From Vicinamibacterales bacterium (GTDB lineage: Bacteria; Acidobacteriota; Vicinamibacteria; Vicinamibacterales; 2-12-FULL-66-21): a DNA stretch of 64,000 nucleotides. A program made the position numbers and the translations under genes. This document shows positions 3,567 to 39,508 of the stretch, in pieces. Position 1 is the stretch's first letter, and each line of letters begins with the position of its first letter. The stretch covers positions 2,148 through 66,147 of the forward strand of contig JBMDXB010000142.1 in assembly GCA_048594885.1 (NCBI GenBank). Reading direction: 5' to 3'. A model generated the notes under the pieces. The model was not told the origin of the DNA. It saw only the letters and a list, made by a program, of their open reading frames with translations, and did not search any database.

Positions 3567-3678
3567 TCCCGGTCAATGCTGAATGCTGAATGCCAAATGC
3601 TGAACGGGGTGCTGCTTGGCCCATTCCCGCATTCCCCGCATTTTCAGCATTTGGCATCAGCATTCAGCATTGACCCGG
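3567..3678. repeat. Imperfect 35-bp-arm inverted repeat built from GCTGAAT heptamers, exactly filling the gap between two convergent stop codons; likely bidirectional terminator
   Basis: Left arm cccggtcaatgctgaatgctgaatgccaaatgctgaa. Right arm ttcagcatttggcatcagcattcagcattgacccgg is the reverse complement with one indel. It is flanked by the stops at 3564-3566 and 3680-3682. Confidence 0.8.
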
Positions 3679-3679
3679 C

Positions 3680-4645
3680 CTACGACTCGAAGATCCCGCG
3701 GAATGCCTGATCGATCTCCGGATAGCGGAAGTGGAACTTGAGCGCTTTCGCTTTCGCCGGGATCGCGCGCTGGCCGGTGACGAGCGTCTCCGCCATCTCG
3801 CCGAGCGCGATCTTCAGCGCGAGCTTCGGCGTGGGCAGGAGCGCCGGGCGGTGCAGCGCGCGGCCGAGCGCGCGGGCGAACTCGCGGCTGTTCACCGGGT
3901 GCGGCGCCGTCGCGTTGACCGGCCCGCTCACCTCCGGCGTGTCCACAATCCACCGCACCATCTCGAGCCAGTCGATCCGGTGGATCCACGACATGTACTG
4001 GCGTCCGGATCCCATCGGTCCGCCCACGAACAGGCGAAACGGCGTCAGCATCTTCGCCAGCGCGCCGCCCGACTGCTCGAGCGCGATGCCGGTGCGGAGC
4101 AGCGCCACGCGCGTTTCTGACCGCGCGGCGCGGCGCGCCTCCCCCTCCCAGTCGACGCAGAGAGTCGCGAGGAAATCGCCGCCGGGCGGCGAGTCCTCCG
4201 TCTTCGGATCGTCTCCGGACGGTCCGTAGAATCCGACGGCGCTGCCGCTCACGAATACCCGCGGCGGCGTCGCCACCGCATTGATCGCCGCCGCCAGGCT
4301 TCGCGTCGAGACGATGCGGCTGTCGCGCAGCAGGGCCTTGCGTTGCGGCGTCCAGCGGCCGCCGGCGATCGACTCGCCCGCGAGGTTGATCACCGCGTCG
4401 GCGCCGTCGATCACGTGCGCCCAGGCCGGCAACTGGGCTGCCGCAAAGCCGTCCGTGCCGGGCACGAGCGCCTCCGGCTGCCATCCCACGCGTGACACGC
4501 CGGGCACGCCCGTGCCCGGATCGTGCCGCGACTCGCCCGCCGGCAGCCCGCGCGTCAGCACGCGGACGTCGTGCCCTTCCTCTGCGTAGACTTCCGCGAG
4601 AGGGCTGCCCAGAAATCCGCTGCCGCCAGCTATGACGATCTTCAT
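3680..4645 (-). CDS. TIGR01777/YfcH-like NAD-dependent epimerase family protein (DUF1731 C-terminus)
   Basis: Start MKIVIAGGSGFLGS, a Rossmann GxxGxxG motif, with ATG at 4643-4645. The C-terminal region is typical of YfcH. Confidence 0.75.
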   Translation of the reverse strand: MKIVIAGGSGFLGSPLAEVYAEEGHDVRVLTRGLPAGESRHDPGTGVPGVSRVGWQPEALVPGTDGFAAAQLPAWAHVIDGADAVINLAGESIAGGRWTPQRKALLRDSRIVSTRSLAAAINAVATPPRVFVSGSAVGFYGPSGDDPKTEDSPPGGDFLATLCVDWEGEARRAARSETRVALLRTGIALEQSGGALAKMLTPFRLFVGGPMGSGRQYMSWIHRIDWLEMVRWIVDTPEVSGPVNATAPHPVNSREFARALGRALHRPALLPTPKLALKIALGEMAETLVTGQRAIPAKAKALKFHFRYPEIDQAFRGIFES

Positions 4646-4798
4646 ATCAGCCCTTTGGCCTTGCCGCCTCGCTGCGCTCGGCAGCCCGGAGGGTCTCGTC
4701 GCACATCGCGATAACTTCGACGCAAGGGGGGCGTCGAAGGTTTGCACTATAATGTGCCCTTCACCGCCAGTTTGCTCCCCTCAGAATTGCGGGTGCCC

Positions 4799-6733
4799 AT
4801 GCGCCACTTTCTTCGTGTTGCGGTGCTGCTGCTGACCGCTGTACCGGCAGCGGCGCAGGACGCGGCAGTGCCGGTGCCGCCGGCCGTCAAGCTGGATGGG
4901 GTGCCGCCAATCCCGGTATCGCTGGCGGAACGCTTCGCGCCGTACGGCGAGTTCCGCTTCGCCGAGCTCCTCAACTGGCATCCAACACGCCGGCAGATGC
5001 TGATCGCGACGTCATTCGGCCGTCGTCACGTTCATCTCGTCGACGGCCCGGGGCGCGCCCGCACCCAGGTGACCTTCGGCCCCGTGGTGACGGGCGGCGC
5101 CTGGTACGAGCCGGTGCGCGGCGACTACGTCGTCTTCCGTCGTGACATCGGCGGCGGTGCCGAGCGCTCGCAGTTGTTTCGCTACGACCTCGGCACTCGC
5201 ACCGCGACCATGATCACCGACGGCAAGTCGCGCAACGGCCTGTCCGTCGTCGTTTCCAGGAAGTCCGGCCTCCTCGCCTTCGACTCGTCGCGCCGCACCG
5301 GGAACGATCGCGAGGTCTGGGTCATCGATCCGGCGGAGCCGTCGAGCGCGCGCATCGTGGCGGAGGCGGCCGGCAACTGGATCCCTCAGGACTGGTCGCC
5401 CGACGATCGCGAGCTGCTCGTCGAGGAGCGCGCGTCGACCGACGAGCGCTACATCTGGCGCTTCGACGTGACGACGGGGGTGAGGACGCCGGTGACGTCG
5501 CGCGAGAAGCACCGCGGGTTCTGGGAGATGCCGCGGTTTGGCGGCGATGCTCGTACGGTCTACGCGTTGAGCAACCACGGTGGCGAGGTGACGCGGCTGT
5601 GGCGCACCGACGCCAAGGGTGAGTGGACGCCCATCACGCGCGCGACGGAATCGGTTGAGTGGTATGCGCTGTCGCCGGACGGCCGCACGCTCGCAATCGT
5701 GTTCGACCGCGGCGCCACGAGCGTTCTCGAGCTCGTCGACGGCGCGACGATGAAGACACGCCACGCGCCGAAGCTGCCCGCCGGCACGATCACGAACCTG
5801 CAGTGGCATCGGAACGGCCAGGAGGTCGCCTTCAACCTGCGCTCCGTGCAGACGTTCAACGACGTTTACTCCGTGTCGGCCGCGACCGGATCCGTCGAAC
5901 GCTGGACGACGAGCGAGAGTGGCGGCGTGAACCCCGAGACGTTGCCGAACGCGGAGATCGTCGGCTGGAAAAGCTTCGACGGGCTGACGATCCCCGGAGT
6001 GCTGTACCGGCCGCCCGCGCGTTTCAAGGGGCCGCGTCCGGTGATGATCAACCTCCACGGCGGACCGGACGACTTCCGCGAGCGCCCGCGCTTCCTCGGC
6101 CGCAACGCGTCGTTCGTCAACGAGCTCGGGATTGCGCTGATCTTCCCCAATTTCCGCGGCACCCCTGGCTACGGCCAGGCCTTTCTCGCCGCCGACAACG
6201 GCAGGCAGCGAGAGGACGCGGTGAAAGACATCGGCGCGCTGCTCGACTGGATCGCCCAGCAGCCGGGCCTCGACAAGGATCGCGTCATGGTGACCGGCGC
6301 GAGCTACGGCGGCTACCTGACGTACGCGGTCGCCGCGAAGTACGGCGATCGGATCCGTTGCGCATTCGCCGCCGCGGCGATCTCGAACTTCGTCAGCTAC
6401 CTGGAGCAGACCGACCCCGTCCGCCAGCTCAATCGCCGGTCGGAATACGGCGACGAGCGCGATCCCGCGATGCGCGACTTCCTCACGCAGATTTCGCCCA
6501 CCACCCACGCGTCGAAGATCCGCGTTCCGCTCTTCATCATGCACGGCGCGAAGGACACGCGCGTGCCGCTGGCACAGGCGCAGGAGATGGCGAGTGCCGT
6601 TCGCGCCGCCGGAACGACCGTGTGGGTCGCCGTCTACGGCGACGAGGGGCACACGCTCTGGCAGAACCCGGCGAACAACGATTTCAACCTGCTGACGTGG
6701 GTCATGTTCGTGCAGGAGTACCTTCTGAAGTAA
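4799..6733 (+). CDS. Secreted S9 family peptidase (prolyl oligopeptidase/DPP-like, beta-propeller + alpha/beta hydrolase)
   Basis: Signal peptide MRHFLRVAVLLLTAVPAAAQ. Catalytic-serine motif GASYGGYLT and C-terminal Asp/His region (MHGAKDTRVP ... GDEGHTL). Confidence 0.8.
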   Translation: MRHFLRVAVLLLTAVPAAAQDAAVPVPPAVKLDGVPPIPVSLAERFAPYGEFRFAELLNWHPTRRQMLIATSFGRRHVHLVDGPGRARTQVTFGPVVTGGAWYEPVRGDYVVFRRDIGGGAERSQLFRYDLGTRTATMITDGKSRNGLSVVVSRKSGLLAFDSSRRTGNDREVWVIDPAEPSSARIVAEAAGNWIPQDWSPDDRELLVEERASTDERYIWRFDVTTGVRTPVTSREKHRGFWEMPRFGGDARTVYALSNHGGEVTRLWRTDAKGEWTPITRATESVEWYALSPDGRTLAIVFDRGATSVLELVDGATMKTRHAPKLPAGTITNLQWHRNGQEVAFNLRSVQTFNDVYSVSAATGSVERWTTSESGGVNPETLPNAEIVGWKSFDGLTIPGVLYRPPARFKGPRPVMINLHGGPDDFRERPRFLGRNASFVNELGIALIFPNFRGTPGYGQAFLAADNGRQREDAVKDIGALLDWIAQQPGLDKDRVMVTGASYGGYLTYAVAAKYGDRIRCAFAAAAISNFVSYLEQTDPVRQLNRRSEYGDERDPAMRDFLTQISPTTHASKIRVPLFIMHGAKDTRVPLAQAQEMASAVRAAGTTVWVAVYGDEGHTLWQNPANNDFNLLTWVMFVQEYLLK

Positions 6734-6751
6734 CCGCGATATCATCGCGGG

Positions 6752-7666
6752 ATGATTGCTCTCACTCTTCTGCTCGCGCTCATGGTGGGTCAGGCAACCG
6801 CGCCGCAGTCTGCCGCTCAACCCGACGAGACCCGGCAGCAGCTGAGTCAGGCGCAGAAGCTGATCCAGGCAGGGAACGTCACCGAGGCCGTCGCGATCCT
6901 GAAGCGCGCCGTGACGGCGTCGCCGCAGTCGTTCGACGCGCACCACGCGCTCGGACGCGCGCTCGATCTCGAGGGGCAGCACGCCGACGCGCGGCGTCAT
7001 CTGGAGCAGGCGGCCGCGCTCGCGAACGACAAGAACCGCAACAGCGCGCTGTCCGCGATGGGCGTCTCCTGGGCGTTCGAGGGCAAGGCGGACGAAGCCG
7101 CGCGCTACTACCAGCGCATCTTCGACGCGCAGATGCAGGCGAACGACCGCGGCGGCGCCGCCGGCACCGCCAACGCGCTCGGGCGCATCTTCCTCGAGTC
7201 GGGAAATCTCGACAAAGCGGAGGAGTGGTACCGGACCGGGATCGAGACGGCAAAGAAGGTCCCCGAGCTGCCACCCGACCAGGCCGCGCTGTGGGAATGG
7301 CGCTGGCACAACGCACAGGCGCGCATCGCCGCCCGTCGCAAGAACGCGGCTGCCGCACAGACGCACGCCGCGGAAGCGAAGGCGCTGCTCGACAAGGCTG
7401 GCAACGAGAACCAGCGCCCGTTCTACCCGTATCTGCTCGGCTACATGGCGTTCTACGCCGGCGACAACAAGCGTGCGATCGATGAGCTGATGCAGGGCGA
7501 TCTGAAGGACCCGTTCGTCCTCGGGCTGATCGCGCAGGCGTACGAGAAGCTGGGCGACAAGGCGAAGGCGCGCGAGCACTACGAGAAGGTGATGGCGCTG
7601 CCGTCGCACTCGATCAACACGGCTTTCTCGCGGCCGCGCGCGCGGGCGTTCCTTGCACGTCGCTGA
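6752..7666 (+). CDS. Secreted tetratricopeptide-repeat protein
   Basis: N-terminal signal peptide. Helical TPR-like repeats (AHHALGRALDLEGQHADARRHLEQAA and others). Confidence 0.6.
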   Translation: MIALTLLLALMVGQATAPQSAAQPDETRQQLSQAQKLIQAGNVTEAVAILKRAVTASPQSFDAHHALGRALDLEGQHADARRHLEQAAALANDKNRNSALSAMGVSWAFEGKADEAARYYQRIFDAQMQANDRGGAAGTANALGRIFLESGNLDKAEEWYRTGIETAKKVPELPPDQAALWEWRWHNAQARIAARRKNAAAAQTHAAEAKALLDKAGNENQRPFYPYLLGYMAFYAGDNKRAIDELMQGDLKDPFVLGLIAQAYEKLGDKAKAREHYEKVMALPSHSINTAFSRPRARAFLARR

Positions 7667-7790
7667 TCGCTGATCGCTGATCGCGTAACGCCGATCGGCG
7701 AACGTCGATCAGCGATCAGCGATCGGCGATCGGCGATCGGCGATCGGCGATCAGCGATCGGCGATCAGCGATCGGCGCCGAGCCACGAGT
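7660..7790. repeat. Heptamer palindromic minisatellite: (GCTGATC)3 followed by (GATCAGC/GATCGGC)~10
   Basis: Tandem 7-mers and their reverse complements, visible directly in the sequence. It overlaps the last codons of two convergent genes. Confidence 0.85.
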
Positions 7791-9066
7791 ACACATCGTC
7801 GAGGACGTCGGCCAGCTCGGAGCGGAAGCGGCGGAGGCGCTCGCGCGTTCCGTCGCGCGTGCGGCGCAGCAGCAGCCACGCGCGGACGGCATCGAGGACG
7901 GCCGACTCGCGCTCGATGGCGAACAGGCCGGCGATGCCGACGGAGGGCAGCGCAGCCAGCGCCGCGATGCCGGCCGCCGCGCCCCACAGCTTCCACGCAA
8001 TCGCCGCAACCGCGGCAATCCACAGCGTGTAGAGCACGAACCCGGACAGCGCCTTCGCCGTCGCCTCGACGTCCGTGTCGCGTGTGAAGCGGCGCGAGAT
8101 GGCGTGCGTCACGAGGTACGGCACCGCGAACGTCAGCATCGTGACGGCAGACAGCGGAACGAGCGCTACCGCGGCGATCAGCTCGCGCGCGGCGAAGCGA
8201 GCCGCGTCGGCGGCGGAGATCTGCCAGTCGAGGTGACGATCGCGCAGCCCGAAGCGGCGTAGCCGGTCGTCGTAACGCCGGAACTTCAGGAAGATCTCCT
8301 CGTAGCGCTGCGGGTCGGCTGCCCGCAGCCGTTCCATGCCGACGGCGATGACGCGGCGCCGCGCGACGCGTTCCTGCGGATCGTGCGGGACGGCTCGCGC
8401 GGCCGCATACAGCCGATCGATGCGATCGACCACGGCGGCGTCGCCGGCTGGATCCGCTTCGACGAGCAGCCGCCGCATGTGCTGCGCCATCCGGTCCGTC
8501 AGCGTCCGCACTGCCTGCGCATCGTCCTGCGGAAGATCGGATGCGGAAAACGGCTTGCCGTAGACGACGATCGCGCGCGAGCGAAACACCGTCTTCCGCT
8601 CGAAGTTGAGGCCGGCCGGCAGGATCGCAACGCGAATGCCGTTCTGTTCGGCGGCAAGTGCCATCCGCGCCGCGCCGGTGCGCAACGGCGCCAGCCGACC
8701 CGTCGAGTGGCTGATGCCCTCGGGAAACACGCACACCGCGTCACCCGCGGCGAACGCCGCCTCCACGGCCGCGAACGTCTCGGCGTTCTTCGACGTGTCA
8801 ACGCCCTGATCGAGCCTGCGGTAGACGGGGATCGCGCCGGCACCTGCGAGCAGCGGGCGCAGCGGCGTGCCGAACAGCGTCGATTTCGCCAGGAAACGGA
8901 CGTCGCGGCCTGCCGTCGCCCAGATCACCGCCGGATCGAGCAGCGAGTTGGGATGATTCGGCAGGATGAGGACGGCGCCTTGCTGCGGCACCGTGCCGAC
9001 GGTCTCGACCCGGTAGAAGAGCCGTGACGCCGCGCGCGCTAGCGCTCGGACGAACGGTGATGCCAT
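7765..9066 (-). CDS. 1-acyl-sn-glycerol-3-phosphate acyltransferase family (PlsC-like) with C-terminal membrane extension
   Basis: NHPNSLLD (HxxxxD) and FPEG motifs with a long hydrophobic C-terminus. The start is either ATG at 9066 (MASPFVRA) or 9093. Confidence 0.7.
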   Translation of the reverse strand: MASPFVRALARAASRLFYRVETVGTVPQQGAVLILPNHPNSLLDPAVIWATAGRDVRFLAKSTLFGTPLRPLLAGAGAIPVYRRLDQGVDTSKNAETFAAVEAAFAAGDAVCVFPEGISHSTGRLAPLRTGAARMALAAEQNGIRVAILPAGLNFERKTVFRSRAIVVYGKPFSASDLPQDDAQAVRTLTDRMAQHMRRLLVEADPAGDAAVVDRIDRLYAAARAVPHDPQERVARRRVIAVGMERLRAADPQRYEEIFLKFRRYDDRLRRFGLRDRHLDWQISAADAARFAARELIAAVALVPLSAVTMLTFAVPYLVTHAISRRFTRDTDVEATAKALSGFVLYTLWIAAVAAIAWKLWGAAAGIAALAALPSVGIAGLFAIERESAVLDAVRAWLLLRRTRDGTRERLRRFRSELADVLDDVYSWLGADR

Positions 9067-9077
9067 CGTCAACTCCC

Positions 9078-9310
9078 AAAGGCCAAGGGCCAAGGACCAA
9101 GCGGCTCAAGTTCCAAGGCCCAAAGACCAAAGACCAAAGACCAAAGACCAAAGACCAAGGCCAAGACCAAGGCCAAAGACCAACGGCCAAAGGGCGCTCA
9201 CTTGGAGGTTGGCCTTTGGTCCGTTGGGAGTTTCGATGCTTGGTCCTTGGCCTTTGGTCGTTGGCAGTTTCGATGCTTGGTCCTTGGTCTTTGGTCGTTG
9301 GTCTTTGACA
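9078..9310. repeat. Heptamer palindromic minisatellite, GGTCTTT/CCAAAGA variant, with a nested 22-bp direct repeat
   Basis: (GACCAAA)5 and CCAAGG units are mirrored by (TTTGGTC)n and CCTTGG units. gtttcgatgcttggtccttgg occurs twice. The repeat lies between the MFS stop and the acyltransferase start. Confidence 0.85.
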
Positions 9311-9314
9311 TGTC

Positions 9315-10616
9315 TCAGACGGTAGCATCGGCCGCGCGGGCGACGGCCTGCCCGCGATCGACGTTGACCATCGACAGCACCGCCCATCCCACCACGAAAA
9401 AGACGACGACGCTGAGGATGGCGAAACGCGGCGATCCCGTCACCTTCACCGCAACCGCGAACGTGGCGGGACCAAGTGCGCCGGTGAACTTCTCAAAGAT
9501 GGAGAAGAACGCAAAGAACTCCGCGCTTTTCGCCTTCGGGATCATCGTCGCGAAGAGCGATCGGCTCAGCGCCTGGCTGCCGCCCTGCACCATGGCGAGG
9601 AGGGCCGCGAGCAGATAGAAATGCAGCGCGGTGGTCATGAAGTAGGCCAGCACACTGATCACGACGTACACCGCGAGCGCGAGGTAGATCGATCGCTTGG
9701 CCCCGAACCGGCCGGCGAGCGCGCCGAAGAGGAACGCGAACGGCACGCCGACGAACTGCACGAGGATGACGGCGGCGATCAGCGGCCCGGCGCCCAGGCC
9801 AATCTGCGTGCCGTAGCTCACCGCCATCTTGATGATCGTGTTGATGCCATCGTTGTAGATGGCGAACGCCACCAGCATCACGAATGCTTCACGGAAGCCG
9901 CGCAGTTCCCTCACCGTCTGCGCGAGCTGCCGCAGCGTGATGGCCATCAGGTTCCCGCTGGCGCGGACCACGTGCGTCGGCGGTTCCGGCACCCGCCTAA
10001 AGAGCGGGATCGAGAACAGCAGCCACCATACGGCGACGCTCACGAACGAGACCCTGGCGGCCACGCCCATGTCCGCCATGCCGAAGGCCTGCGGGTAGGT
10101 GATCCAGATGGCGTTGATCACCAGCAGCAGCCCGCCGCCGAAATATCCGATCGCGTACCCGGCCGTCGACACGCGATCCATGTCGCGCTCGCCGGCGATG
10201 TGCGGCAGCAGCGCGTCGTAGAACGCCATGCTGCCGAAGGCGCCGATGCTGGCGAGGATGAAGAGAAAGGTCGCAAACCGCCACTCGCCGTAGTCGATGA
10301 AGAACATCGCGGCTGTCGAGCCGACACCGAGCGCGAGGAAGGCCGCGAGCATCCGTTTCTTGACGGGCAGATAATCGGCGAGCGCGCCCAGCACCGGATT
10401 GAGGATGGCCACAACCGCGATGGCGATCGTGTTCGCGAGCCCGTACATCGCCAGCGCGTCGGTTTCGGACAGGGTGGCCGCGGCGGTCCGCTGGAAGTAG
10501 ATGGGGAAGATCGCCGTGACGATGGTGCACATGAAGGCGGAGTTCGCCCAGTCGTACATCGCCCACGCGCGCAACTCCGGTCGTCCCAGGCCGAGGCGTT
10601 CGAGGATTCCAGTCAT
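9315..10616 (-). CDS. MFS transporter (UMF1-like)
   Basis: 12-TM hydrophobic profile starting from MTGILERLGLGRPELRAWAMYDWANSAF. The start ATG overlaps the upstream stop (ATGA). Confidence 0.75.
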   Translation of the reverse strand: MTGILERLGLGRPELRAWAMYDWANSAFMCTIVTAIFPIYFQRTAAATLSETDALAMYGLANTIAIAVVAILNPVLGALADYLPVKKRMLAAFLALGVGSTAAMFFIDYGEWRFATFLFILASIGAFGSMAFYDALLPHIAGERDMDRVSTAGYAIGYFGGGLLLVINAIWITYPQAFGMADMGVAARVSFVSVAVWWLLFSIPLFRRVPEPPTHVVRASGNLMAITLRQLAQTVRELRGFREAFVMLVAFAIYNDGINTIIKMAVSYGTQIGLGAGPLIAAVILVQFVGVPFAFLFGALAGRFGAKRSIYLALAVYVVISVLAYFMTTALHFYLLAALLAMVQGGSQALSRSLFATMIPKAKSAEFFAFFSIFEKFTGALGPATFAVAVKVTGSPRFAILSVVVFFVVGWAVLSMVNVDRGQAVARAADATV

Positions 10617-10618
10617 GA

Positions 10619-11764: not shown

Positions 11765-11815
11765 GGGTGATTACGCTCTTCTACGTAATGGTTACGTAGT
11801 TTAACGTAACGGCGC
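11765..11815. promoter_or_regulatory. AT-richer operator-like region with three TTACGTA(A/G) palindromic half-sites directly upstream of the ATPase-MFS operon
   Basis: ctacgtaatggttacgtagtttaacgtaacgg contains an 8-bp-arm palindrome CTACGTAA-tgg-TTACGTAG and a third AACGTAAC copy. Confidence 0.5.
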
Positions 11816-11825
11816 TGGCGGGGGA

Positions 11826-11992
11826 AGACATCCGTCCCTGGTCCCTGGTCCTGGTCCCGAGTCCCTGGTCCCTGGTCCCGAGTCCCTCGTCCCGAGTCAG
11901 TCCCGGGACCAGGGACCCGAGACCAGGGACCCGAGACCAGGGACCCCGAGACCAGGGACCCGTGACCAGGGACTAGGGACCAGGGACGGGGA
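11826..11992. repeat. Heptamer palindromic minisatellite: (GGTCCCT)n ... (AGGGACC)n
   Basis: About 10 units of GGTCCCT/GGTCCCG are followed by about 10 units of GAGACCAGGGACCC and similar. The M28 peptidase stop codon lies inside the right arm. Confidence 0.9.
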
Positions 11993-23162: not shown

Positions 23163-24055
23163 CACATCACGATCTTGTTGAGCGGGTACTCGACGATGCC
23201 CTGTGCGCGGGCCGCCTTGAGGCGCGGAATCAACTCGCGCACGGTGCGCTCCTCGATGATCGTGTTCAGCGCGACCCACTCGCCATCGCTGAGCGGTGAC
23301 ACCGTCGGCCGCTGCAGCGCCGGCAGGAGCGACAGCACGTTCTGGAGATCCGAGACCCGGACGTTCAGCATGATGCCGACGCGCCCCTGTGCCTCGATGG
23401 CTGCTTTCAGCAGCAGCGCGATGTTGTCCACCTTCGTGCGCTTCCATTCGTCGTTCAGCGACGCGGCGTTCGCGATCAACTGCGTGTTGGATTCGAGAAC
23501 CGTGTCGATGACGCGCAGCCGGTTCGCGCGCAGCGACGAGCCGGTCTCGGTGACCTCGACGATCGCGTCGGCGAGCGTCGGCGGCTTCACCTCGGTGGCG
23601 CCCCACGAGAACTCGACCGTGACGTTGACGCCATGCTTCGCGAAGTACGCCTGCGTCGCGCGCACCAGCTCGGTCGCGACGGTGGCACCTTCGAGATCGC
23701 GCACGTCGCGGTAGCGCGAGTCCTCAGGCACCGCGAGCACCCAGCGGACCTTGCCGAAGCTTTGCTTGGCATAGACGAGATCGGCGATCGGCACGATCGA
23801 AGCGCCGCCGCCGTTGGCCGCGGCGTGCTCGGCGATCCAGTCCTGTCCGGTGAGTCCCGCGTCGAGCACGCCGTCGGCGACGTAGCGCGCCATCTCCTGC
23901 GCGCGGATCAGCATGCACTCGATCTCGGGGTCGTCAATCGTCGGAAAGTACGACCGCGAGCTCGCGTAGATGTTGAACCCCGCCCGCGCGAACAACTGGA
24001 TCGTCGCGTCCTGCAGCGACCCCTTCGGTATTCCCAACCGCAGCTTTTGAGTCAT
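23162..24055 (-). CDS. hisG: ATP phosphoribosyltransferase (long form with C-terminal regulatory domain)
   Basis: [27 protein letters not shown]. The ORF track's upstream extension is encoded by the G-rich repeat and was discarded. Confidence 0.85.
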
Positions 24056-24125
24056 CGTTCTCTCGGCCCCCCGGCCCCCCGGCCCCCCGGCCCCCGGCCC
24101 CCCGGCCCCTCGGCCCCCCGGCCCC
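24056..24125. repeat. G-tract minisatellite (GGGGGGCC)n on the transcribed strand, filling the whole hisI-hisG intergenic spacer
   Basis: The plus strand reads ctcggccccccggccccccggccccccggcccccggccccccggcccctcggccccccggccccc. The mRNA strand carries eight or more G5-6 tracts. Confidence 0.85.
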
Positions 24126-24437
24126 CTAGCTCCCAAACTCCCTGAAGCAGCTTCGGGTTCCGGTGTGGCAGACGTTGCCGTCGCCGAGGCGCGTCACCTT
24201 CAACACCAGCGAGTCATCGTCGCAATCGACGAGGATCTGTTCGACCTTCAGCCGGTTGCCCGACGTCTCGCCTTTCATCCACAGCTTCTGGCGTGTGCGG
24301 CTGTAGAAGGTCGCGAAGCCGCTCTCGAGCGTGCGATCGAGCGCGTCCTGGTTCATGAAGCCGACCATCAGCACTTCGCCCGAAGCGTTGTCCTGAATCA
24401 CGGCCGGAATGAGCCCGTCCAGTTTTGAAAAGTCCAT
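24126..24437 (-). CDS. hisI: Phosphoribosyl-AMP cyclohydrolase
   Basis: [29 protein letters not shown] ... CHTGTRSCF identifies HisI. Confidence 0.85.
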
Positions 24438-24443
24438 AAACGC

Positions 24444-24477
24444 AAAAAGCCCCGCTGAATCTCTCCAGCGGGGCTTT
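24444..24477 (-). terminator. Rho-independent terminator-like hairpin (GCCCCGCTG-gagagatt-CAGCGGGGC + UUUUU on the minus strand), 7 nt upstream of the hisI ATG
   Basis: Perfect 9-bp GC-rich stem followed by CTTTTT on the minus strand. Confidence 0.6.
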
Positions 24478-24595
24478 GGAAGTTGCGACCGTTTCGTGGT
24501 CTGGTTCAGCGCATTCGCAACTCGACCGGCCCGCCGGAGCAGGATGCATGGTGATGCCGGTGATGATGCTGGACGCGTGCCATTGGCATGTTAGT

Positions 24596-24626
24596 AGGGG
24601 CGGAGCTTGCTCCGCCCACACCGTGC
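24596..24626. repeat. REP-like hairpin GTAGGGGCGGAGC-TTGC-TCCGCCCAC
   Basis: Perfect 9-bp stem. The same core recurs at 26590-26640 and, reverse-complemented, at 46895-46920. Confidence 0.7.
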
Positions 24627-26370: not shown

Positions 26371-26389
26371 GGGACAAGAGGATACAACG

Positions 26390-26550
26390 GGTCCCTCGTC
26401 CCTGGTCCCTGGTCGCGCGTCCTTGGTCGCGAGTCCCTGGTCACAGGTCCCTCGTCATAGGTCGATGCGTTGCCGATGACGGGACCCGCGACCCGGGACC
26501 CGCGACCCGGGACCAGGGACCCGCGACCCGGGACAAGGGACCAGGGACCA
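26390..26550. repeat. Heptamer palindromic minisatellite (GGTCCCT/GGTCGCG ... CGGGACC/AGGGACC) in the divergent ggt/glgX promoter region
   Basis: Tandem 7-mers and their reverse complements, read directly from the sequence. Confidence 0.85.
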
Positions 26551-26658
26551 ACGGACGCGTGCTCCTGTGGCACAGGACTTGAACGCGCGTAGGGGCGGAC
26601 CTTGATCGGCCCTATAGGACGGAGCAAGCGCCGCCCCCACGTCGCACAAGTCCTGAAC

Positions 26659-28788
<2,130 letters not shown>

Positions 28789-28789
28789 G

Positions 28790-28835
28790 TCCCTGGTCCC
28801 TGGTCCCGGGTCCCTGGACCGGGGCGCGCCCCTCA
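28790..28835. repeat. Short GGTCCCT-type hairpin repeat downstream of glgX (terminator-like)
   Basis: gtccctggtccctggtcccgggtccctggaccgggg, with the CCGGGTCC/GGACCGG stem. Confidence 0.6.
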
Positions 28836-30269: not shown

Positions 30270-30976
30270 TCACGCTCGACTTCGTGCTGCGGCAGGGAGA
30301 GTTCGAGCTCGAGATCCACGAGCGGATCGACGTCCGCGTCACCGCGCTGTTCGGTCCGTCGGGCGCCGGCAAGACCACGGTGCTCGACGCGATCGCGGGG
30401 CTGCGCACGCCGGCGCACGGAACGATTGCCGTCGGAGAGCGGCAGCTCTTTTCGTCGGGGGAGGCGGGGAGCCGGGGGGCCGGGGAGGCGGGGAGCCGGG
30501 GAGCCGGGGGGCCGGGGAGCCGGGGGGCCGGGGAGCCGGGGGGCCGCACGATCAATCTGCCGCCGCATCAGCGTCACGTCGGCTACGTCACCCAGGACGT
30601 CGCGCTCTTTCCGCATCTGAACGTGCGGCGCAACGTGCTCTACGGTCAGCGGCACGGGCAGAAGCTCGATCTGACGACGGTCGCCGGGATGCTGGAGGTC
30701 GGCTCGCTGCTCGACCGCCACGTCCACCAGCTCTCAGGCGGAGAGAAGCAGCGCGTCGCGCTCGCGAGGGCGCTGATGTCGGCGCCGTCGGTGCTGCTGC
30801 TCGACGAGCCGCTCGCAGCCGTTGACGTCGAGCGGCGCCGCCGGATCCTGCCGTATCTCGAGCGCGTTCGCGATCAGCTCGCGGTGCCGATCATCTACGT
30901 GACGCACGATCAGGAGGAGCTGCGGCGCATCGCCGACCGCGTCATCACGCTCGCCGACGGCCGTGTGACTACGTAG
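30266..30976 (+). CDS. modC: Molybdate-type ABC transporter ATP-binding protein carrying an in-frame Gly-rich minisatellite insertion
   Basis: Walker A GPSGAGKT, signature LSGGEKQR and Walker B LLLDEP. The GTG start overlaps the modB stop. Residues GEAGSRGAGEAGSRGAGGPGSRGAGEPG are encoded by the G-tract repeat at 30458-30546. Confidence 0.75.
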   Translation: MITLDFVLRQGEFELEIHERIDVRVTALFGPSGAGKTTVLDAIAGLRTPAHGTIAVGERQLFSSGEAGSRGAGEAGSRGAGGPGSRGAGEPGGRTINLPPHQRHVGYVTQDVALFPHLNVRRNVLYGQRHGQKLDLTTVAGMLEVGSLLDRHVHQLSGGEKQRVALARALMSAPSVLLLDEPLAAVDVERRRRILPYLERVRDQLAVPIIYVTHDQEELRRIADRVITLADGRVTT

Positions 30977-31694: not shown

Positions 31695-31799
31695 GACGGG
31701 TCTCCTTTTGCGCTCCGCACTCGAACGGACGCACACGTGGCGGGTGTTGGTGTTATTGGGAACAGGGAGACGACTAGAAGCGGACGGCGGTGCTCAGAG

Positions 31800-31880
31800 G
31801 CAGTTCCGGCCAAAGCATAACATCGCTTTGCGATCCGCGATCCGCGCTCCGCGATCAGCGATCCGCGATCAGCGATCCCC
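31800..31880. repeat. Tandem heptamer repeat (GCGATCC/GCGATCA)~8 without an obvious inverted partner
   Basis: cgatccgcgatccgcgctccgcgatcagcgatccgcgatcagcgatccccgat. Confidence 0.75.
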
Positions 31881-31882
31881 GA

Positions 31883-32692
31883 TTACAGATCCCGCCGCTG
31901 AAAGCGCCAGTAGGCTAGGGCCGCGAAAAGGGCGGTGGCCGCCCAGAGGACGATCAGGTTGCGCCAGATTGGCGCGGTGCCGGCGAGGATCGATGCGCCA
32001 GGGTAGTAACGGAACGGAGACAGCCACGCGATCGGCCGTACACGCGGCCAGACGATCGCCAGGAAATCGATCAAATACATCGCGATTGTCGTCAGCGCCG
32101 CCACCGTGAACGCGACGCTCCATCGCTTCGCCCCGGCGGCGACGGCGAGGCCGAACGCCGCGCAGCACCATGCGAGGCTCGCCATGTGCGCGATGAGGAG
32201 GAAGATCGTCCAGGCTCGCGGCCACGCCGCGACGGACGGTGCGAACACGTTGAGGCCGGCGGCGGTGCCGGCGGCCATGGCCGAGACCAGCAGGACGACG
32301 GTCGCTGTGGACAGCAGCAGCGACCGCGTGATGACGCGACGTCGTGGCAGCGGGCGCGCGAGCAGCAGATCGACGCGTCCGCTCTCCACGTCGTGCGCCG
32401 GCTCGGTCGCGAAGTACATGGCCGCCAGCGTCACGACCATGACGACCAGCGGGTGGAAATAGCCGAACGCAACCATGCCCTGGAACGACGCCAGCCAGAG
32501 CGCCTGCTCGCCGAGTCCCCGCTGCAGGAACGCCGGGAGGAACTCCGCCATGCGCCCGAACGACAGCGTCGATTCCATCGTCGCCGCCTGTCCCGCCAGC
32601 AGGAACTGGAATCCGCCGACGACAGCGGTGCACGCGACGAGCGCGTACCACGCCTGACCGGCGGAGCGCTGGATCAGCGTCAGCAGTCTCAC
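31883..32692 (-). CDS. ABC-2 type transporter permease
   Basis: 6-TM hydrophobic protein. GTG start (VRLLTLIQRS) 9 nt after the ATPase stop. Confidence 0.7.
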   Translation of the reverse strand: MRLLTLIQRSAGQAWYALVACTAVVGGFQFLLAGQAATMESTLSFGRMAEFLPAFLQRGLGEQALWLASFQGMVAFGYFHPLVVMVVTLAAMYFATEPAHDVESGRVDLLLARPLPRRRVITRSLLLSTATVVLLVSAMAAGTAAGLNVFAPSVAAWPRAWTIFLLIAHMASLAWCCAAFGLAVAAGAKRWSVAFTVAALTTIAMYLIDFLAIVWPRVRPIAWLSPFRYYPGASILAGTAPIWRNLIVLWAATALFAALAYWRFQRRDL

Positions 32693-32700
32693 AGTGGTCC

Positions 32701-33612: not shown

Positions 33613-33773
33613 CAATTGTCCCGGGGGACTTCGTCCCCCGGACCCCCTCGCGCCGTCGCTCGCGGGGACCCCCATGCCCCGCTCCGCTCCGGCGGGGCGC
33701 GCCTGTGGCGCGCCTACCGTAATGCCGCACGCTGTCAACGAGTTCAGAATCCTTGTTGCAGTCGGCATGGCGT

Positions 33774-34862: not shown

Positions 34863-35386
34863 GACGACGATCTCCCGTACGCGTGAGAAAGGTTGGCGCC
34901 GGCCGCGTATGCGCGCTCCCAACGCTCGAGCGCTCGCGCGAGCAGCCGTCCGACCGAGGAGGGCCTGATACGAGATGCGGCGGCGATCTCGCGATATGTC
35001 AGCCCTTGCGCGCGCAACGCGACCAGCAATCGATCGCGCCGCGAGAGTTTCCGCAGCGCATCGCGCACCGCCTGAAGATGACCGTCCTCGTCGCGCAACG
35101 CCGGCGGCGCGACCTGCGGATCGTGCTCCGCGGACCACGGCATCCACCGGTTCCGCCGCCGCATGCGATCGGTGCACGCGTGCGCGGCAACGGTGAACAG
35201 CCAGGCGCGCAAGTTGTCCGCCGCGCCACCGCCGTTGAGATGGCCGAGCAGCTTCAGGTAGGTCTCCTGAACGACGTCCTCGGCATCCTGATGGTGCCGC
35301 AGCACCACGAGTGCGAATCGATACAGCGCTCCGCCGTGCTGCTCGAACAGCGTCAAGACCTCGCGACGCGCGCTGTCAGGCTCCAT
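34859..35386 (-). CDS. RNA polymerase ECF-type sigma-70 factor
   Basis: Region 2 (YRFALVVLRHHQDAEDVVQETYLKL) and region 4 (LTYREIAAASRIRPSSVGRLLARA). Confidence 0.85.
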   Translation of the reverse strand: MEPDSARREVLTLFEQHGGALYRFALVVLRHHQDAEDVVQETYLKLLGHLNGGGAADNLRAWLFTVAAHACTDRMRRRNRWMPWSAEHDPQVAPPALRDEDGHLQAVRDALRKLSRRDRLLVALRAQGLTYREIAAASRIRPSSVGRLLARALERWERAYAAGANLSHAYGRSSS

Positions 35387-35468
35387 TCATGCCTCTCGGC
35401 CGGACGTCTATATAACGCGCCGGACCATCCGTTTGTGACAGCCGGCTGACGGGGGAATAATCCCACGC

Positions 35469-35915
35469 ATGGACGCATTTCTCGACGCCGCGATCGCAGA
35501 GGCGGAGGCCGGCCTCCGTGAGGGCGGGATTCCAATCGGGTCGGTCATCGTCCATCGGGGGCGCATCATCGGGCGAGGCCACAACCGTCGCGTGCAGCAA
35601 GGAAGCGCGATCCTCCATGGCGAGATGGATGCGCTCGAGAAGGCCGGCCGGCAGCCGGCGGCCGTGTATCGCGAATGCGTCCTCTACACGACGCTGTCGC
35701 CCTGCGCGATGTGCACGGGCGCGATCCTGCTCTACGGCATCCCGACCGTCATCGTCGGCGAGAACCGGACGTTCATGGGCGAGGAGGAGCTGCTGCGGTC
35801 ACGCGGCGTGTCAGTGGAGGTACGGCAGGACCCGCGCTGCATCCGGATGATGGAGGGGTTCATCGCAGCGCATCCGAAGTTGTGGAATGAAGATATAGGC
35901 GTCCCTGGTCCCTAG
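35469..35915 (+). CDS. Nucleoside (cytosine-type, Fcy1-like) deaminase, CMP/dCMP deaminase zinc-binding fold
   Basis: HGEMDALE ... SPCAMCTGA zinc ligands. The C-terminus ...WNEDIG resembles yeast Fcy1. Confidence 0.75.
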   Translation: MDAFLDAAIAEAEAGLREGGIPIGSVIVHRGRIIGRGHNRRVQQGSAILHGEMDALEKAGRQPAAVYRECVLYTTLSPCAMCTGAILLYGIPTVIVGENRTFMGEEELLRSRGVSVEVRQDPRCIRMMEGFIAAHPKLWNEDIGVPGP

Positions 35916-36243
35916 TCCCTGGTCACGGGTCCCCGGTCACGGGTCCCCGGTCACGGGTCCCGGGTCACGGGTCCCGAGTCCCCCCGGTCACGGGTCCCGA
36001 GTCCCCCCGGTCACGGGTCCCGAGTCCCCACGGTCACGGGTCCCGAGTCCCCACGGTCACGGGTCCCGGCTCGTGACGAGGGACGTGACCTGTGACCAGG
36101 GACCTGTGACCTGTGACCAGGGACCTGTGACCTGTGACCAGGGACCTGTGACCAGTGACCAGTGACCAGTGACCAGGGACCAGGGACTAGGGACCAGGGA
36201 CTAGGGACCAGGGACCAGGGACTAGGGACCAGGGACCAGGGAC
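35901..36243. repeat. Largest heptamer palindromic minisatellite (~340 bp): (GGTCACGGGTCCCC)n ... (GTGACCAGGGACC)n between convergent genes
   Basis: At least 12 14-bp double units on the left and their reverse complements on the right. It exactly fills the gap between the deaminase stop (35915) and the lysC stop (36252). Confidence 0.9.
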
Positions 36244-36251
36244 GCGCGTGT

Positions 36252-37553
36252 CTACGGCACCGGCTGCGGTTCGCGCTCGATGAACGTGCGGTGCAGCGCT
36301 TTCACCGCCTCGTCCACGCCGCCGCGATCGATCAGCCATGTCGTCCGGAACGATGACGTCGACAGACCGCGCGTGGCGATACCGGCGCCGTCCAACGTCG
36401 ACGTCCCTCGGCGGACAGTCTCGTGGCTCGCGTTGATTCCCGCGCCGACGACGCTCACGGCGCCGAGACCGTCGAGCAGCCGTACGCCGTCGCTGAAGGC
36501 GGTGCTCAGCTCAGCGCGCACGCGCGGCTCGTCGTGCAGGTTCTCGCGCGAGACGATGAGCGTGACGCCGTCGCCAGGCGCGCCGTACGACGCGACGTGG
36601 AGCTGCTTCCCGGCGACGCTGCGGGCGTCGAGCATTTCCAGCAGCCGGGTGGCGTTGCCCGCGGCCTGCAGCACGATCACGTCCTTCTCGCTCGCCACGC
36701 CGACGACCGTTCCCGGCGGGCGTGGCGCGAACTTGCGGACGACGGTCCCATCCGCCGACGGATCCGCTCCGGGCAGCGGCGCCGACGTCGCGCGCGCGTA
36801 GATCGCGATGCCGGCCTGCTTGGCGAACTCCACCGCCTGCGCGTTGAGCACCTTCGCGCCCGACTCGGCGAGCTCCTGCGTCTCCTCGTACGACAGCACG
36901 CCGATCCGCTGCGCGCCGTTGACGACGCGGGGGTCCGCCGTATAGACGCCGTCGACATCGGAGCAGATCTCGCACCACTCCGCGCCGAGCGCCGCGGCCA
37001 TCGCCACCGCCGTCGTGTCGCTGCCGCCGCGGCCCAGCGTCGTCACCTCTCGCCGGTACGAGACGCCCTGGTAGCCGGCGACGACGACGACGCGGCCGCG
37101 AGCGAGCTCGTCCTGCACGCGGAAGGGGCGCACTTCGATGATTCGCGCGTCGATGTGGCGATCGTTGGTGATGATGCCCGACTGGCTGCCGGTGAAGCTG
37201 ATGGCGTCCCCACCGAGCTCGCGGATGGCAATCGAGAGCAGCGCCATCGCGATCCGCTCGCCGGCGGAGAGGAGCATGTCAAGCTCCCGGCGATCCGGAT
37301 TCGGGGAGATCTTCTTGGCGAGGGCGAGGAGTTCGTCGGTGGTGTGGCCCATGGCGGAAACGACGACCACGACGTCGTGGCCCTCCCGCCTGGTGCGCAT
37401 CACCCGTTCGGCGACCTGACGGATCTTGTCCGAATCCGCGACGCTGGTGCCGCCGTATTTCTGGACGACTGTCGACACGCCGTTCGCTCCAGCAATCACC
37501 ATACCGCCGTCTGCGGTCGGGGGTACCAGGAGAACGGGAGAAAGGGGAGACAT
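36252..37553 (-). CDS. lysC: Aspartate kinase
   Basis: [10 protein letters not shown] ... [15 protein letters not shown] with tandem ACT domains. The start is uncertain between 37553 (ATG), 37502 (ATG) and 37571 (TTG). Confidence 0.85.
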
Positions 37554-37652
37554 GTACCTTTTCTCAGACAAGAAGAAAAAGAGTTCTCCCTTCCTCCCCT
37601 TCTCCTGCTATACCCAGCGGTCGTGTAGATTACTGGCGCGAAAGGCGGTCAC

Positions 37653-38264
37653 ATGGGCGTTCTGCGACGGTGGTTCGGGCCGAGCAAGGAAGAGATCTGG
37701 CGGCAGCTCAGTGAGCGGATCGGCGGCCGCTACGTCGAGTCGCGGCTGCTGAAAGGCGACCGCGTCGAAGCGTCGCACGGCGACTGGACGGTCACGCTCG
37801 ACAGCTACGCGGTTTCCACCGGCAAGGTGACGGTGGTGTACACGCGGCTGCGCGCCCCGTATGTGAATCCGACCGGCTTCCGCTTCACGGTCTACCGCAA
37901 GAGCCTCTTCAGCGGCCTGGGGAAGCTGTTCGGCATGGAGGACATCGAGATCGGCGACCCGCAGTTCGACGAGAAGTTCATCATCAAAGGCACCGACGAC
38001 TCGCTCGTGCGCCAGTTGCTGTCGAATCCGAAAGTCCGCGAGCTGATGGCGCAGCAGCCGGACATCAACTTCAGCGTCAAGGACGACGAGGGCTGGTTCG
38101 GGCCGAAGTTTCCGGAGGGCGTGGACGAACTGCATTTCGTCGCCACGGGCATCATCAAGGACCTCGAGCGCCTGAGGCTGCTCTACGAGCTGTTCGCCGA
38201 GACGCTCGACGAATTGTGCCGGATGGGATCGGCCTACGAAGGATCCGTCGAGGTGAAGCTCTGA
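37653..38264 (+). CDS. Hypothetical protein (soluble, conserved-looking)
   Basis: 203 aa with good coding periodicity, divergent from lysC. Confidence 0.5.
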   Translation: MGVLRRWFGPSKEEIWRQLSERIGGRYVESRLLKGDRVEASHGDWTVTLDSYAVSTGKVTVVYTRLRAPYVNPTGFRFTVYRKSLFSGLGKLFGMEDIEIGDPQFDEKFIIKGTDDSLVRQLLSNPKVRELMAQQPDINFSVKDDEGWFGPKFPEGVDELHFVATGIIKDLERLRLLYELFAETLDELCRMGSAYEGSVEVKL

Positions 38265-38274
38265 GGTGCGTGCG

Positions 38275-39363
38275 ATGACGAACAGACGCCGATCCTCCAT
38301 CCTGCTTGCGATTGTGCTCGCTGCCGCGTGCGCGGCACGGAGCGGCAAGCCGGCGGCGAGTCCCGCCGTCGCGCGCATCTTCCCCGGCGCGTCGTGGGAG
38401 ACGATCGCCGACCCGAAGACGGCGGGCTACTGTGCCGACAAGCTCGAGCTCGTCACCGCGCGCGCGAAGGAGCTCCCCACGACGGCGATGATGGCGGTCG
38501 CGGGCGGACGCGTGCTGTACGAGTACGGCGATGTCACCACGGTCAGCTATCTCGCTTCGGTGAGGAAGAGCGTGCTGGCGATGTTGTTCGGGAACTACGT
38601 CGCGAGCGGCAGAATTCGGCTCGACAAGACGCTCGCCGAGCTGAAGATCGACGACATCGGCGGCTTGTCGGACAGCGAGAAGGAAGCGACGATTGCCGAC
38701 CTGCTCGGCGCGCGTTCGGGCGTCTATCACCCGGCGTCGAACGCCGGCGACAACCTGGCCGACGCGCCGCCGCGCGGCTCGCAGAAGCACGGCACCCACT
38801 TCCTCTATTCCAACTGGGATTTCAACGCGCTCGGAACGATCTTCGAGCAGGAGACCGGGCAGAACATCTACGACGCGCTCGAGCGTGATCTCGCGCGGCC
38901 GATCGGCGTGCAGGAGTTCGATCGGTCGACGCACCGGCGCACCGGCGATTCGAAGCAGTCGATGCACCTCGCGTATCACATGAACTTCTCGACGCGCGAC
39001 ATGGCGCGGATCGGCTATCTCATGCTGCGCGAGGGCACCTGGAACGGCCAGCAGCTCGTGCCACGCGACTGGGCGAGGCGGATCGTCACTGCCGTCACGC
39101 GGGTGCATGAGATGAACCCGCCAGCCAACCGGAGGGGTCCCTTCGGCTACGGCTATCTGTGGTGGGTCTGGGACGGCCAGTTCGCCACAGGGCCGTTCGA
39201 GGGCGCGTACTCCGGCCGCGGCGCGATTGGGCAGTACATCACCGTCTTTCCCAAGCTCGATCTCGTCATCGCGCACAAGACGCGCCCCGGCCGCGGCTCG
39301 GTGTCGTGGGCGCAGTACATGGAACTCGTCGATCGGCTGATGGCCGCCAGGTGCATGAGCTGA
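38275..39363 (+). CDS. Serine hydrolase, beta-lactamase/PBP family
   Basis: Lipoprotein-like signal (LLAIVLAAACAARSG), a SxxK motif (SVRKS) and YSN. GAGG RBS before the ATG at 38275. Confidence 0.75.
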   Translation: MTNRRRSSILLAIVLAAACAARSGKPAASPAVARIFPGASWETIADPKTAGYCADKLELVTARAKELPTTAMMAVAGGRVLYEYGDVTTVSYLASVRKSVLAMLFGNYVASGRIRLDKTLAELKIDDIGGLSDSEKEATIADLLGARSGVYHPASNAGDNLADAPPRGSQKHGTHFLYSNWDFNALGTIFEQETGQNIYDALERDLARPIGVQEFDRSTHRRTGDSKQSMHLAYHMNFSTRDMARIGYLMLREGTWNGQQLVPRDWARRIVTAVTRVHEMNPPANRRGPFGYGYLWWVWDGQFATGPFEGAYSGRGAIGQYITVFPKLDLVIAHKTRPGRGSVSWAQYMELVDRLMAARCMS

Positions 39364-39373
39364 GGCGAAGTTG

Positions 39374-39508
39374 GCCACAGCGTTTTGACACGGAATACAC
39401 GGAGGACACGGAGGAAACGGAGGTCACGGAGACAAATATTCACTCTTCATTGAGAAACTACCAGAAGACTCCGTGTTCTCCGTGACCTCCGTGTTCAAAC
39501 GCTGTGTA
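39374..39508. repeat. Nonamer palindromic minisatellite (CACGGAGGA)4 ... (TCTCCGTGA)n with an AT-rich centre
   Basis: cacggaatacacggaggacacggaggaaacggaggtcacggagac ... gactccgtgttctccgtgacctccgtgttcaaacgctgtg, with outer arms cagcgttttgacacgg/ccgtgttcaaacgctg. Confidence 0.85.

Follow-up and report, generated by a model that had tools for sequence, protein, structure and literature searches.

The intergenic regions of a 64,000-nucleotide stretch of DNA from a Vicinamibacterales bacterium (Acidobacteriota; NCBI GenBank assembly GCA_048594885.1, contig JBMDXB010000142.1, positions 2,148 to 66,147 of the forward strand), hereafter the window, carry tandem arrays of a short unit, mostly of 7 nt, that are followed after a short spacer by a tandem array of the reverse-complement unit. 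With a probability of roughly 55%, we consider them to be hairpin-forming inverted arrays of long simple sequence repeats (SSRs), mostly heptanucleotide and driven by slippage, which would make them the acidobacterial counterpart of the GGGAATC pairs of Xanthomonas. The arms of an element expand largely independently of each other, array length differs between close relatives by a multiple of the unit, arrays are present, absent or replaced by arrays of another unit at orthologous sites, and the architecture is spread over a broad range of taxa. Arrays of this kind have been described, though they are poorly understood; what is new is the host phylum and the multiplicity of unit families.

Anatomy and symmetry of the arrays

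Arrays were delimited with Tandem Repeats Finder (TRF), run over the 64-kb window, and by direct reading locus by locus. Genes were called by a selection of open reading frames (ORFs) based on GC3 (G+C content at third codon positions), followed by a Pfam scan of about 40 window proteins, and folds were computed with RNAfold on single strands, with z-scores taken against shuffled sequence. Seven loci (A, B, C, D, E, G, and H) have two arms and consist of an array of a 7-nt unit (9 nt in H), a spacer of about 10 to 40 nt and a reverse-complement array:

3567-3680, element A: left arm (3573-3604) of AATGCTG x4.3, spacer of ~38 nt, right arm (3643-3674) of TTCAGCA x4.3; occupies the entire gap between the stops of the convergent DUF1501 (ends 3566) and epimerase (ends 3680) genes; minimum free energy (MFE) -72.4, z -12.3.
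7657-7777, element B: TCGCTGA x3.6, then GATCGGC/GATCAGC x12, a nearly self-complementary unit (it contains CGATCG); between the convergent TPR (stop 7666) and acyltransferase (stop 7765) genes, covering the last codons of both; z -14.2.
9076-9310, element C: AAAGACC/AAGGCC-type units x15, then GGTCTTT/GGTCCTT-type units; occupies an operon junction, with the stop of the MFS gene at 9315 and the start of the acyltransferase gene at 9066 (minus strand in both cases); z -8.6.
11834-11987, element D: GTCCCTG x8.7, 11-nt spacer, GGGACCA x11.7; runs over the final codons of the minus-strand M28 peptidase gene, whose stop is at 11973, and is located upstream of the AAA-ATPase gene; z -11.0.
26388-26551, element E: GGTCCCT-type units x9.6, spacer, CGGGACC-type units x10; separates the divergent genes GGT (minus strand, start 26370) and GlgX (start 26659); z -8.5.
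35901-36245, element G, the largest: ~23 GGTCCCT/GGTCACG/GGTCCCC units, spacer of ~15 nt, ~23 GTGACC/AGGGACC units; between the convergent dCMP-deaminase and aspartokinase genes, with the deaminase stop (TAG, 35913-35915) inside the third unit; MFE -248.7, z -12.7.
39380-39504, element H: 9-mer of the CACGGAGGA type x5, AT-rich spacer of ~30 nt, CTCCGTGNN x3; between the stop of a beta-lactamase-family gene (39363) and the start of a UPF0047 gene; z -8.7.

Copy numbers in long arms such as those of G are to be read with caution, since short-read contigs break at such arrays. The seven elements fold at -65 to -249 kcal/mol (z -8.5 to -14), and inverted array pairs, of which TRF reports eight in the window, never arose in 50 first-order Markov simulations of it. 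The dominant period is 7 (17 of the 26 TRF rows with at least 3.5 copies), and in the window arrays occur about every 6 kb and two-armed elements about every 9 kb.

Four further arrays were found, of which F and those at 24064 and 31830 have a single arm. The last three of the four given below were absent from the list of loci drawn up in a first-pass annotation of the same DNA:

28789-28817, plus strand, array F: GTCCCTG x4.1, starting on the base after the GlgX stop codon (TAA, 28786-28788); z -1.1, no significant hairpin.
24064-24126, minus strand: octamer array (GGGGGCCG)x8, 9 nt upstream of the hisG start codon (24053-24055).
30456-30546, plus strand: octamer array of GGGGAGCC/GGGGGGCC x11, in frame inside an ABC-transporter ATPase gene.
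31830-31883: GCGATCC/GCGATCA x7.7, adjoining the stop codon (31883-31885) of a minus-strand ABC-2 permease gene.

The in-frame array encodes SSGEAGSRGAGEAGSRGAGGPGSRGAGEPGG, which places about 30 extra residues between the Walker A region and what remains of the domain; the array-bearing ATPase has 250 residues, against 213 to 220 in the orthologues of relatives, which are without the insert. The array upstream of hisG lies on the sense strand of that gene, as a G5-tract array in the his-operon leader, and corresponds approximately to the reverse complement of the array at 30456, from which it is separated by 6.3 kb. The unit of the 31830 array resembles that of element B. An ordinary hairpin of ~11 bp at 57036-57066 (CACGGCCCTGG...CCAAGGGCCGTG) has no tandem units and is not a member.

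The flanking genes are convergent at A, B, and G, co-directional at C, D, F, H, and the 31830 array, and divergent at E, and eight of the ten intergenic arrays adjoin or overlap a stop codon. Changes in the flanking genes relative to their orthologues are confined, by alignment, to the last three to five codons. The first-pass annotation had given the unit sequences, the shared architecture, the range of gene orientations and the acidobacterial host correctly, and had rightly separated the arrays, by their anatomy, from CRISPR arrays and from classical repetitive extragenic palindromic (REP) sequences and bacterial interspersed mosaic elements (BIMEs). Seven of its nine two-armed loci stand, that at 28790 having one arm only and that at 57040 being a plain hairpin without repeat. 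Its exact abutting of stop codons holds for the eight arrays just mentioned, A even running from stop to stop, and the near-perfect hairpins that it foresaw are long and stable but imperfect.

The same annotation had described N copies of a unit followed by N reverse-complement copies, which is true only approximately: the arms hold 3.6 and 12 copies in B and 5 and 3 in H, and over the 69 inverted pairs found in all sequences compared, whose arms are separated by a median gap of 34 nt, arm copy numbers are only moderately correlated (rho 0.40). When the left arm was compared with the reverse complement of the right arm and with 300 unit-order shuffles, a mirrored unit order was found only in A (4 of 300 shuffles equally good), where the variant unit GCCA is present as a mirror image in both arms, and in C (0 of 300). 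The arms of B, D, E, G, and H complement each other no better than the shuffles and match at the level of the unit only, and those of G differ in their higher-order periods (23 nt on the left, 14/21 nt on the right). Since mirroring is limited to A and C and the copy numbers are only moderately correlated, the arms expand on their own and the hairpin is not kept base for base. Polar growth, which would leave purer outer than inner units, was not supported (10 vs. 4, p = 0.24, 8 usable elements).

Over 137 arrays, the GTCC core is the conserved part of the GGTCCCT unit, and positions 1, 6, and 7 vary. A fixed boundary phase of these arrays was considered as evidence of mobility and discarded, the non-uniformity being due to the variable positions G1, C6, and T7 and not to element ends. 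Single-linkage clustering of unit sequences chained nearly all of them together and was uninformative, and exact-unit counts were used instead.

Orthologous sites and occurrence in other genomes

The acyltransferase and GlgX proteins of the window are each 100% identical to one NCBI protein and have homologues labelled Vicinamibacterales or Acidobacteria. The window was compared with syntenic relatives having 69-87% protein identity around the acyltransferase gene; L-numbers (L054, L116, L118, etc.) are labels of compared loci from other genomes or contigs. Downstream of the acyltransferase gene, the site of element B is empty in L116/L117, L120, L121, L151-155, and L160, and in L116, L120, and L121 the convergent genes overlap there by about 20 nt. 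Where the site is filled, the units differ:

Window: GCTGATC
L118/L119: GAATCCC x19 + GGGATTC x15-19
L122: CTCCCAG x3.6
L124: ACGGAGGA + CTCCGTTA
L156: CAACGCC-type
L158: ACGGAGAAA
L159: GGCCAGA

In the empty allele, CAGCGCGATGA stands in the place of the (CAGCGAT)n of the window, a resemblance that fits an in-situ seeding of B. At the MFS-acyltransferase junction occupied by element C, L116, L121, L118, and L122 are empty, with genes 1-7 nt apart (TGAGATG in L116 and L121), and L120 has a 78-nt element homologous to the 240-nt element of the window. The site of D holds GGTCCCT units in the window, TAAGAAC|GTTCTTA in L119 and GTTCTCG in L124; that of E is empty in L236-238 (124-nt spacer) and carries a perfect single-arm (ATCCCCG)x5.9 in L233; and that of F is empty (4-nt gap) in relatives where GlgX precedes an SBP gene.

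Between closer relatives, the change is one of whole units. The metagenome-assembled genomes (MAGs) L118 and L119 share 99.5% identity over a 9.6-kb stretch, in which the sole indel is one of 28 nt, i.e., four units, in one arm. Of one element that has both arms in L188, L189, at 89% identity, shows the right arm alone. This pair, together with the single-arm arrays F, 24064, 31830, and that of L233, indicates that single-arm and double-arm states interconvert. Filled and empty alleles compared at three sites showed no target-site duplication at B or at L188/L189, and none is consistent at the site of A either; a TGACA direct repeat flanks the copy of C in L120, and the window copy of C is ambiguous in this respect.

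Several unit families are shared at non-orthologous sites: AATGCTG by the window and L152, AAAGACC by the window, L120, and L124, and CGGGATT by L118, L124, and L111, while arrays with an ACGGAG core occur in the window (H), in L124, L158, L188, L189, and L065, and in a Pirellulales contig. In L119, two TAAGAAC|GTTCTTA elements (3060-3165 and 4322-4423) that lie 1.2 kb apart flank the AAA-ATPase gene, and their left arms are identical over 40 nt. The spacers of these two elements contain GCGTTCA/GCTGAA-type units, which makes them composite.

The lineage-specific character that the first-pass annotation had suggested for the arrays did not survive a wider search. An exact 18-mer of the GGTCCCT array, compared with contigs from one genome per species, was found at no fewer than 115 loci in species-representative genomes of many phyla. 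Among the matches listed, the hosts include Vicinamibacterales, Thermoanaerobaculia, Acidobacteriaceae, and Pyrinomonadaceae within the Acidobacteriota, and Gemmatimonadota, Xanthomonadales/Lysobacterales, Planctomycetota, Verrucomicrobiota, Chloroflexota, cyanobacteria, Streptomyces, and others elsewhere. Inverted array pairs, by a stringent TRF-based test, are present in 36 of the 115 listed loci and are built of many different units. Inverted heptamer arrays occur in many soil and water phyla. A blastn comparison of the window with the 115 loci returned no match, so that the source genome and its close relatives are not among them. Viral contigs gave 26 matches to the 18-mer, of which only four loci had inverted pairs, with no sign in these contigs of a phage vehicle.

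An unbiased metagenome sample of acyltransferase loci, 425 kb in all, contained three inverted pairs, far fewer than the window, which indicates that a high density is the trait of particular lineages, partly hidden by assembly breaks. Short-read contigs do end at or in arrays: L157 stops where L156 has its array, and the end of L158 and the beginning of L235 both fall within arrays. Arrays therefore fragment assemblies and are under-counted in contig collections. In practice, they break short-read assemblies and shift predicted stop codons, and they would make excellent strain-typing markers.

Known repeat systems and the proposed origin of the arrays

The first-pass annotation did not recognize a described repeat class, yet inverted heptamer pairs were already known from Xanthomonas. 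In X. campestris and X. citri, about 185 GGGAATC-type heptamer arrays were reported per genome; 70-75 pairs of neighboring arrays per genome are convergent and on opposite strands, and these were called inverted repeats, with the capacity to fold into stem-loops or cruciforms (Rehm et al., 2015, PLoS One, PMC4692102). These arrays are intergenic, with a strong bias to positions next to or overlapping a stop codon, and are under-represented between divergent genes; they are transcribed, their length varies between species, and no regulatory role or function was identified for them (PMC4692102). The same study found that transcripts start or stop at G-quadruplex (G4)-capable repeats more often than at control repeats. 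According to the account that MacGregor (2015, PMC4679880) gives of a 2007 survey, heptanucleotide repeats are more abundant than any other class of long SSR in the majority of prokaryotic genomes, and a connection with polymerase slippage was proposed for them. The literature searched yielded neither a description of such arrays in Acidobacteria nor functional studies other than PMC4692102 and PMC4679880.

The window shares with Xanthomonas the period-7 arrays (3.6 to 23 copies at A-G, H being a 9-mer variant), the convergent reverse-complement array nearby at seven loci, the intergenic position with a stop-codon bias, and the variation of copy number and sequence between relatives. The AGGGACC units fit the G3+4 pattern: in the AGGGACC arms of D, E, and G, G3 tracts are spaced by 4 nt, the units of A, B, C, and H being without such tracts, and a GGGACCG|CCCGGTC pair exists in X. 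translucens (L054). The differences go beyond the host phylum, Acidobacteriota here. Xanthomonas has essentially one consensus (GGGANTN), mostly in about four units, whereas the arrays considered here belong to at least six unit families with arms of up to ~23 units, and several of these families are not G-rich (GCTGAAT, GATCAGC, AAAGACC, and CACGGAGGA). In addition, the type of a Xanthomonas array, single or inverted, is usually kept while length and sequence vary between related species, and a G-rich repeat is retained at 83% of sites between two species; in the genomes compared here, it is common for an orthologous site to be empty or to hold unrelated units.

Other systems resemble the arrays less closely. 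Long SSRs (5-11 nt), the cyanobacterial short tandemly repeated repetitive (STRR) sequences (GGGGAYT in Nostoc) and the TAACTGA repeats of Beggiatoaceae are likewise phylogenetically scattered intergenic 7-nt tandem repeats of variable copy number, but they are known mainly as single direct arrays, with few inverted pairs in Nostoc and one inverted set in 170 in a Beggiatoaceae genome, where the TAACTGA sets lie upstream of start codons. REP, BIME, and REPIN sequences are dispersed intergenic palindromes as well, often at gene 3' ends or between convergent genes and of variable presence, and are thought to be mRNA stabilizers or terminator-like barriers. However, a REP is a single imperfect palindrome of 20-40 nt with a family consensus and an associated tyrosine transposase (RAYT), whereas the stems here are tandem 7-mers that share only the unit and have unrelated spacers. 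MITEs (miniature inverted-repeat transposable elements) are also small, non-coding, hairpin-capable and polymorphic for insertion; unlike them, the arrays lack defined terminal inverted repeats distinct from the body, have a microsatellite interior and occur in both arm orders. CRISPR was rejected because the units are 7-9 nt long and contiguous, and not 23-50-nt repeats with unique spacers, and REP, MITE, integron attC, and iteron readings were rejected on anatomy.

According to the explanation that we favor, two complementary 7-nt seeds would be provided by a short intergenic inverted repeat, or a single-arm array would later gain a complementary arm. Each arm would then gain and lose whole units or blocks of two to four units by replication slippage, largely independently of the other, and complementary seeds amplified in this way would automatically give a long imperfect hairpin or cruciform. 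Slippage is the presumed engine, and the seeding of a new site could occur by local duplication or by copying from another locus. Growth of an array would halt at sequence under selection, which would place array ends at stop codons or a few codons inside them and leave room for promoters and ribosome-binding sites, and arrays would be gained, lost and replaced faster than species diverge. Among the suggestions of the first-pass annotation, the footprint of a repeat-generating mechanism is the one best borne out by the comparative data.

Several observations weigh against slippage as the whole explanation. Pure in-situ slippage hardly explains a 240-nt array where the genes of relatives sit 1-7 nt apart, nor does it explain that GGTCCCT is common to four or five arrays within 64 kb. 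The recurrence of the AATGCTG, AAAGACC, ACGGAG, and CGGGATT families at non-orthologous sites and of the unit repertoire across phyla, the identical 40-nt arm of the two L119 elements, the strong hairpin of E in a divergent promoter region where it has no obvious benefit, and the lack of a terminator-type T-run in all window arrays add to these difficulties. Taken together, the insertion at the operon junction, the dominance of GGTCCCT, the recurring units and the L119 arm make it likely that some copy-and-paste seeding, or a sequence-specific expansion bias (e.g., for G3/C3 tracts), is involved.

The strongest competitor, which we nevertheless regard as unlikely, is that the arrays are non-autonomous mobile elements, MITE- or REPIN-like, that are copied to intergenic sites by an enzyme encoded elsewhere and modified by slippage afterwards. 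The presence/absence polymorphism with sharp boundaries, the junction insertion included, the TGACA repeat around the L120 element, the reappearance of a restricted number of unit families at non-orthologous sites and in different phyla and the L119 pair around one gene would all be expected of such elements, and D, E, F, and G all start with GTCCCTGG while D, E, and G end with CAGGGAC. Mobility accounts less well for copies that have no consensus beyond the unit and unrelated spacers, for the absence of a consistent target-site duplication at the sites of B, A, and L188/L189, for the resemblance of B to the local empty-site sequence and for the many single-arm arrays. Both arm orders, [GGTCCCT]n-[AGGGACC]n and [AGGGACC]n-[GGTCCCT]n, misfit fixed termini, and the ~40 window proteins scanned against Pfam, which represent 64 kb only, included no transposase, RAYT, reverse transcriptase, or phage protein.

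It is improbable, in our judgment, that the arrays are selected regulatory or structural elements, be they terminators, 3'-end mRNA stabilizers, RNase III sites, G4/i-motif switches (four or more G3 tracts are present in AGGGACC-type arms), or binding-site arrays for a protein reading a 6-7-nt core. Selection would suit the stop-codon bias, the three elements between convergent genes, the very stable hairpins, the greater frequency of Xanthomonas transcript ends at G4-capable repeats (PMC4692102), the conservation of the GTCC core in 137 arrays and the GGAGG/ACACGGA run of the H left arm just upstream of a start codon. Yet orthologous sites are often empty or carry unrelated units, without site-specific conservation, arm pairing is not maintained at the nucleotide level in five of the seven elements, and the units GCTGAAT, GATCAGC, AAAGACC, and TAAGAAC cannot form a G4. 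The promoter region of a divergent gene pair holds one of the arrays, another is part of a translated gene, and Rehm et al. found no regulatory role (PMC4692102).

For the terminator idea, which the first-pass annotation had raised, the arrays show no canonical signature. Like intrinsic terminators, the arrays are GC-rich hairpins just after a stop codon, several of them between convergent genes; unlike them, they have stems of 30-170 nt (5-15 bp in terminators) that contain many mismatches, a 3' U-tract is absent, and others than E lie in 5' leaders. The genome nevertheless possesses a textbook intrinsic terminator at 24446-24477 (minus strand), which lies downstream of the GGT gene and has a GC-rich stem of 14 bp with TTTTT after it. 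Transcribed arrays would form very long imperfect hairpins in 3' untranslated regions or inter-cistronic RNA, which could impede exonucleases or RNA polymerase or attract RNase III; if active, the arrays would thus act as non-canonical barriers, processing sites or stabilizers and not as classical intrinsic terminators.

Distinctly improbable is a sequence-specific process that would seed a small repertoire of core motifs (GTCCCT+N, ACGGAG+N2-5, GGGATTC, and others) into intergenic DNA across many bacterial phyla, to be elaborated later by slippage; an unrecognized enzyme, a mobile-element system and hairpin-stalled templated synthesis are the candidates for such a process. If true, it would define a new class of self-propagating hairpin repeat, a REPIN/RAYT analogue built from microsatellites. 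Finally, assembly artefacts of a short-read MAG, i.e., collapsed or chimeric repeats, are highly improbable: although the contig is metagenome-assembled and the contig breaks in L157, L158, and L235 mean that the copy numbers of G could be wrong, the paired architecture was documented in finished Xanthomonas genomes (PMC4692102) and is present in the complete X. translucens chromosome (L054), in contigs measuring 0.4-5 Mb and at one site in two independently assembled MAGs, and the genes on either side of the arrays are intact and syntenic and have new stop codons inside the arrays, so that the artefact explanation that the first-pass annotation wished to see checked does not hold.

The elements open no new category. 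The cross-phylum spread of one unit, the replacement of units at orthologous sites, the independent arms, the unit-multiple indel, the intrusion into gene ends and the in-frame insertion are observations added here that constrain the mechanism; they bear on the predominance of heptamers and on the seeding of two-armed elements without settling either.

Gene context and transcription signals

The region is ordinary chromosome, with genes for DUF1800 and DUF1501 proteins, an epimerase, an S9 peptidase, TPR, acyltransferase, MFS, AAA ATPase, and M28 peptidase proteins, the his operon, GGT, GlgX, ABC transporters, and MacB-type permeases. The ORF at 24214-24621, which contains the terminator described above, is probably not a gene. 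A scan of the window for canonical promoters and terminators picked up no array and gave the same counts as in shuffles, and Rfam 15 at the gathering threshold had 0 matches in the whole window.

Units of the GCTGA type (7657-7691 and 3573-3604 in the window, 3936-3965 in L152) present TGA when read inward from either side, and with a period of 7 a reading frame that enters them in any phase stops within three units. The TPR and acyltransferase genes and the L152 Mur-ligase gene have their stop codons inside such units. In element H, the left arm (39380-39437) is a run of GGAGG (Shine-Dalgarno-like) and ACACGGA (CsrA-site-like) motifs and the right arm is the matching CCUCC run, the element ending about 20 nt before a start codon that has its own GGAGG.

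Repeated TTACGTAA-like palindromic motifs lie upstream of the AAA-ATPase gene at 11780-11815 in the window, 3019-3061 in L119 and 6250-6290 in L124. They are kept in the three lineages although the adjacent heptamer arrays differ, and this motif is probably an operator or promoter element.

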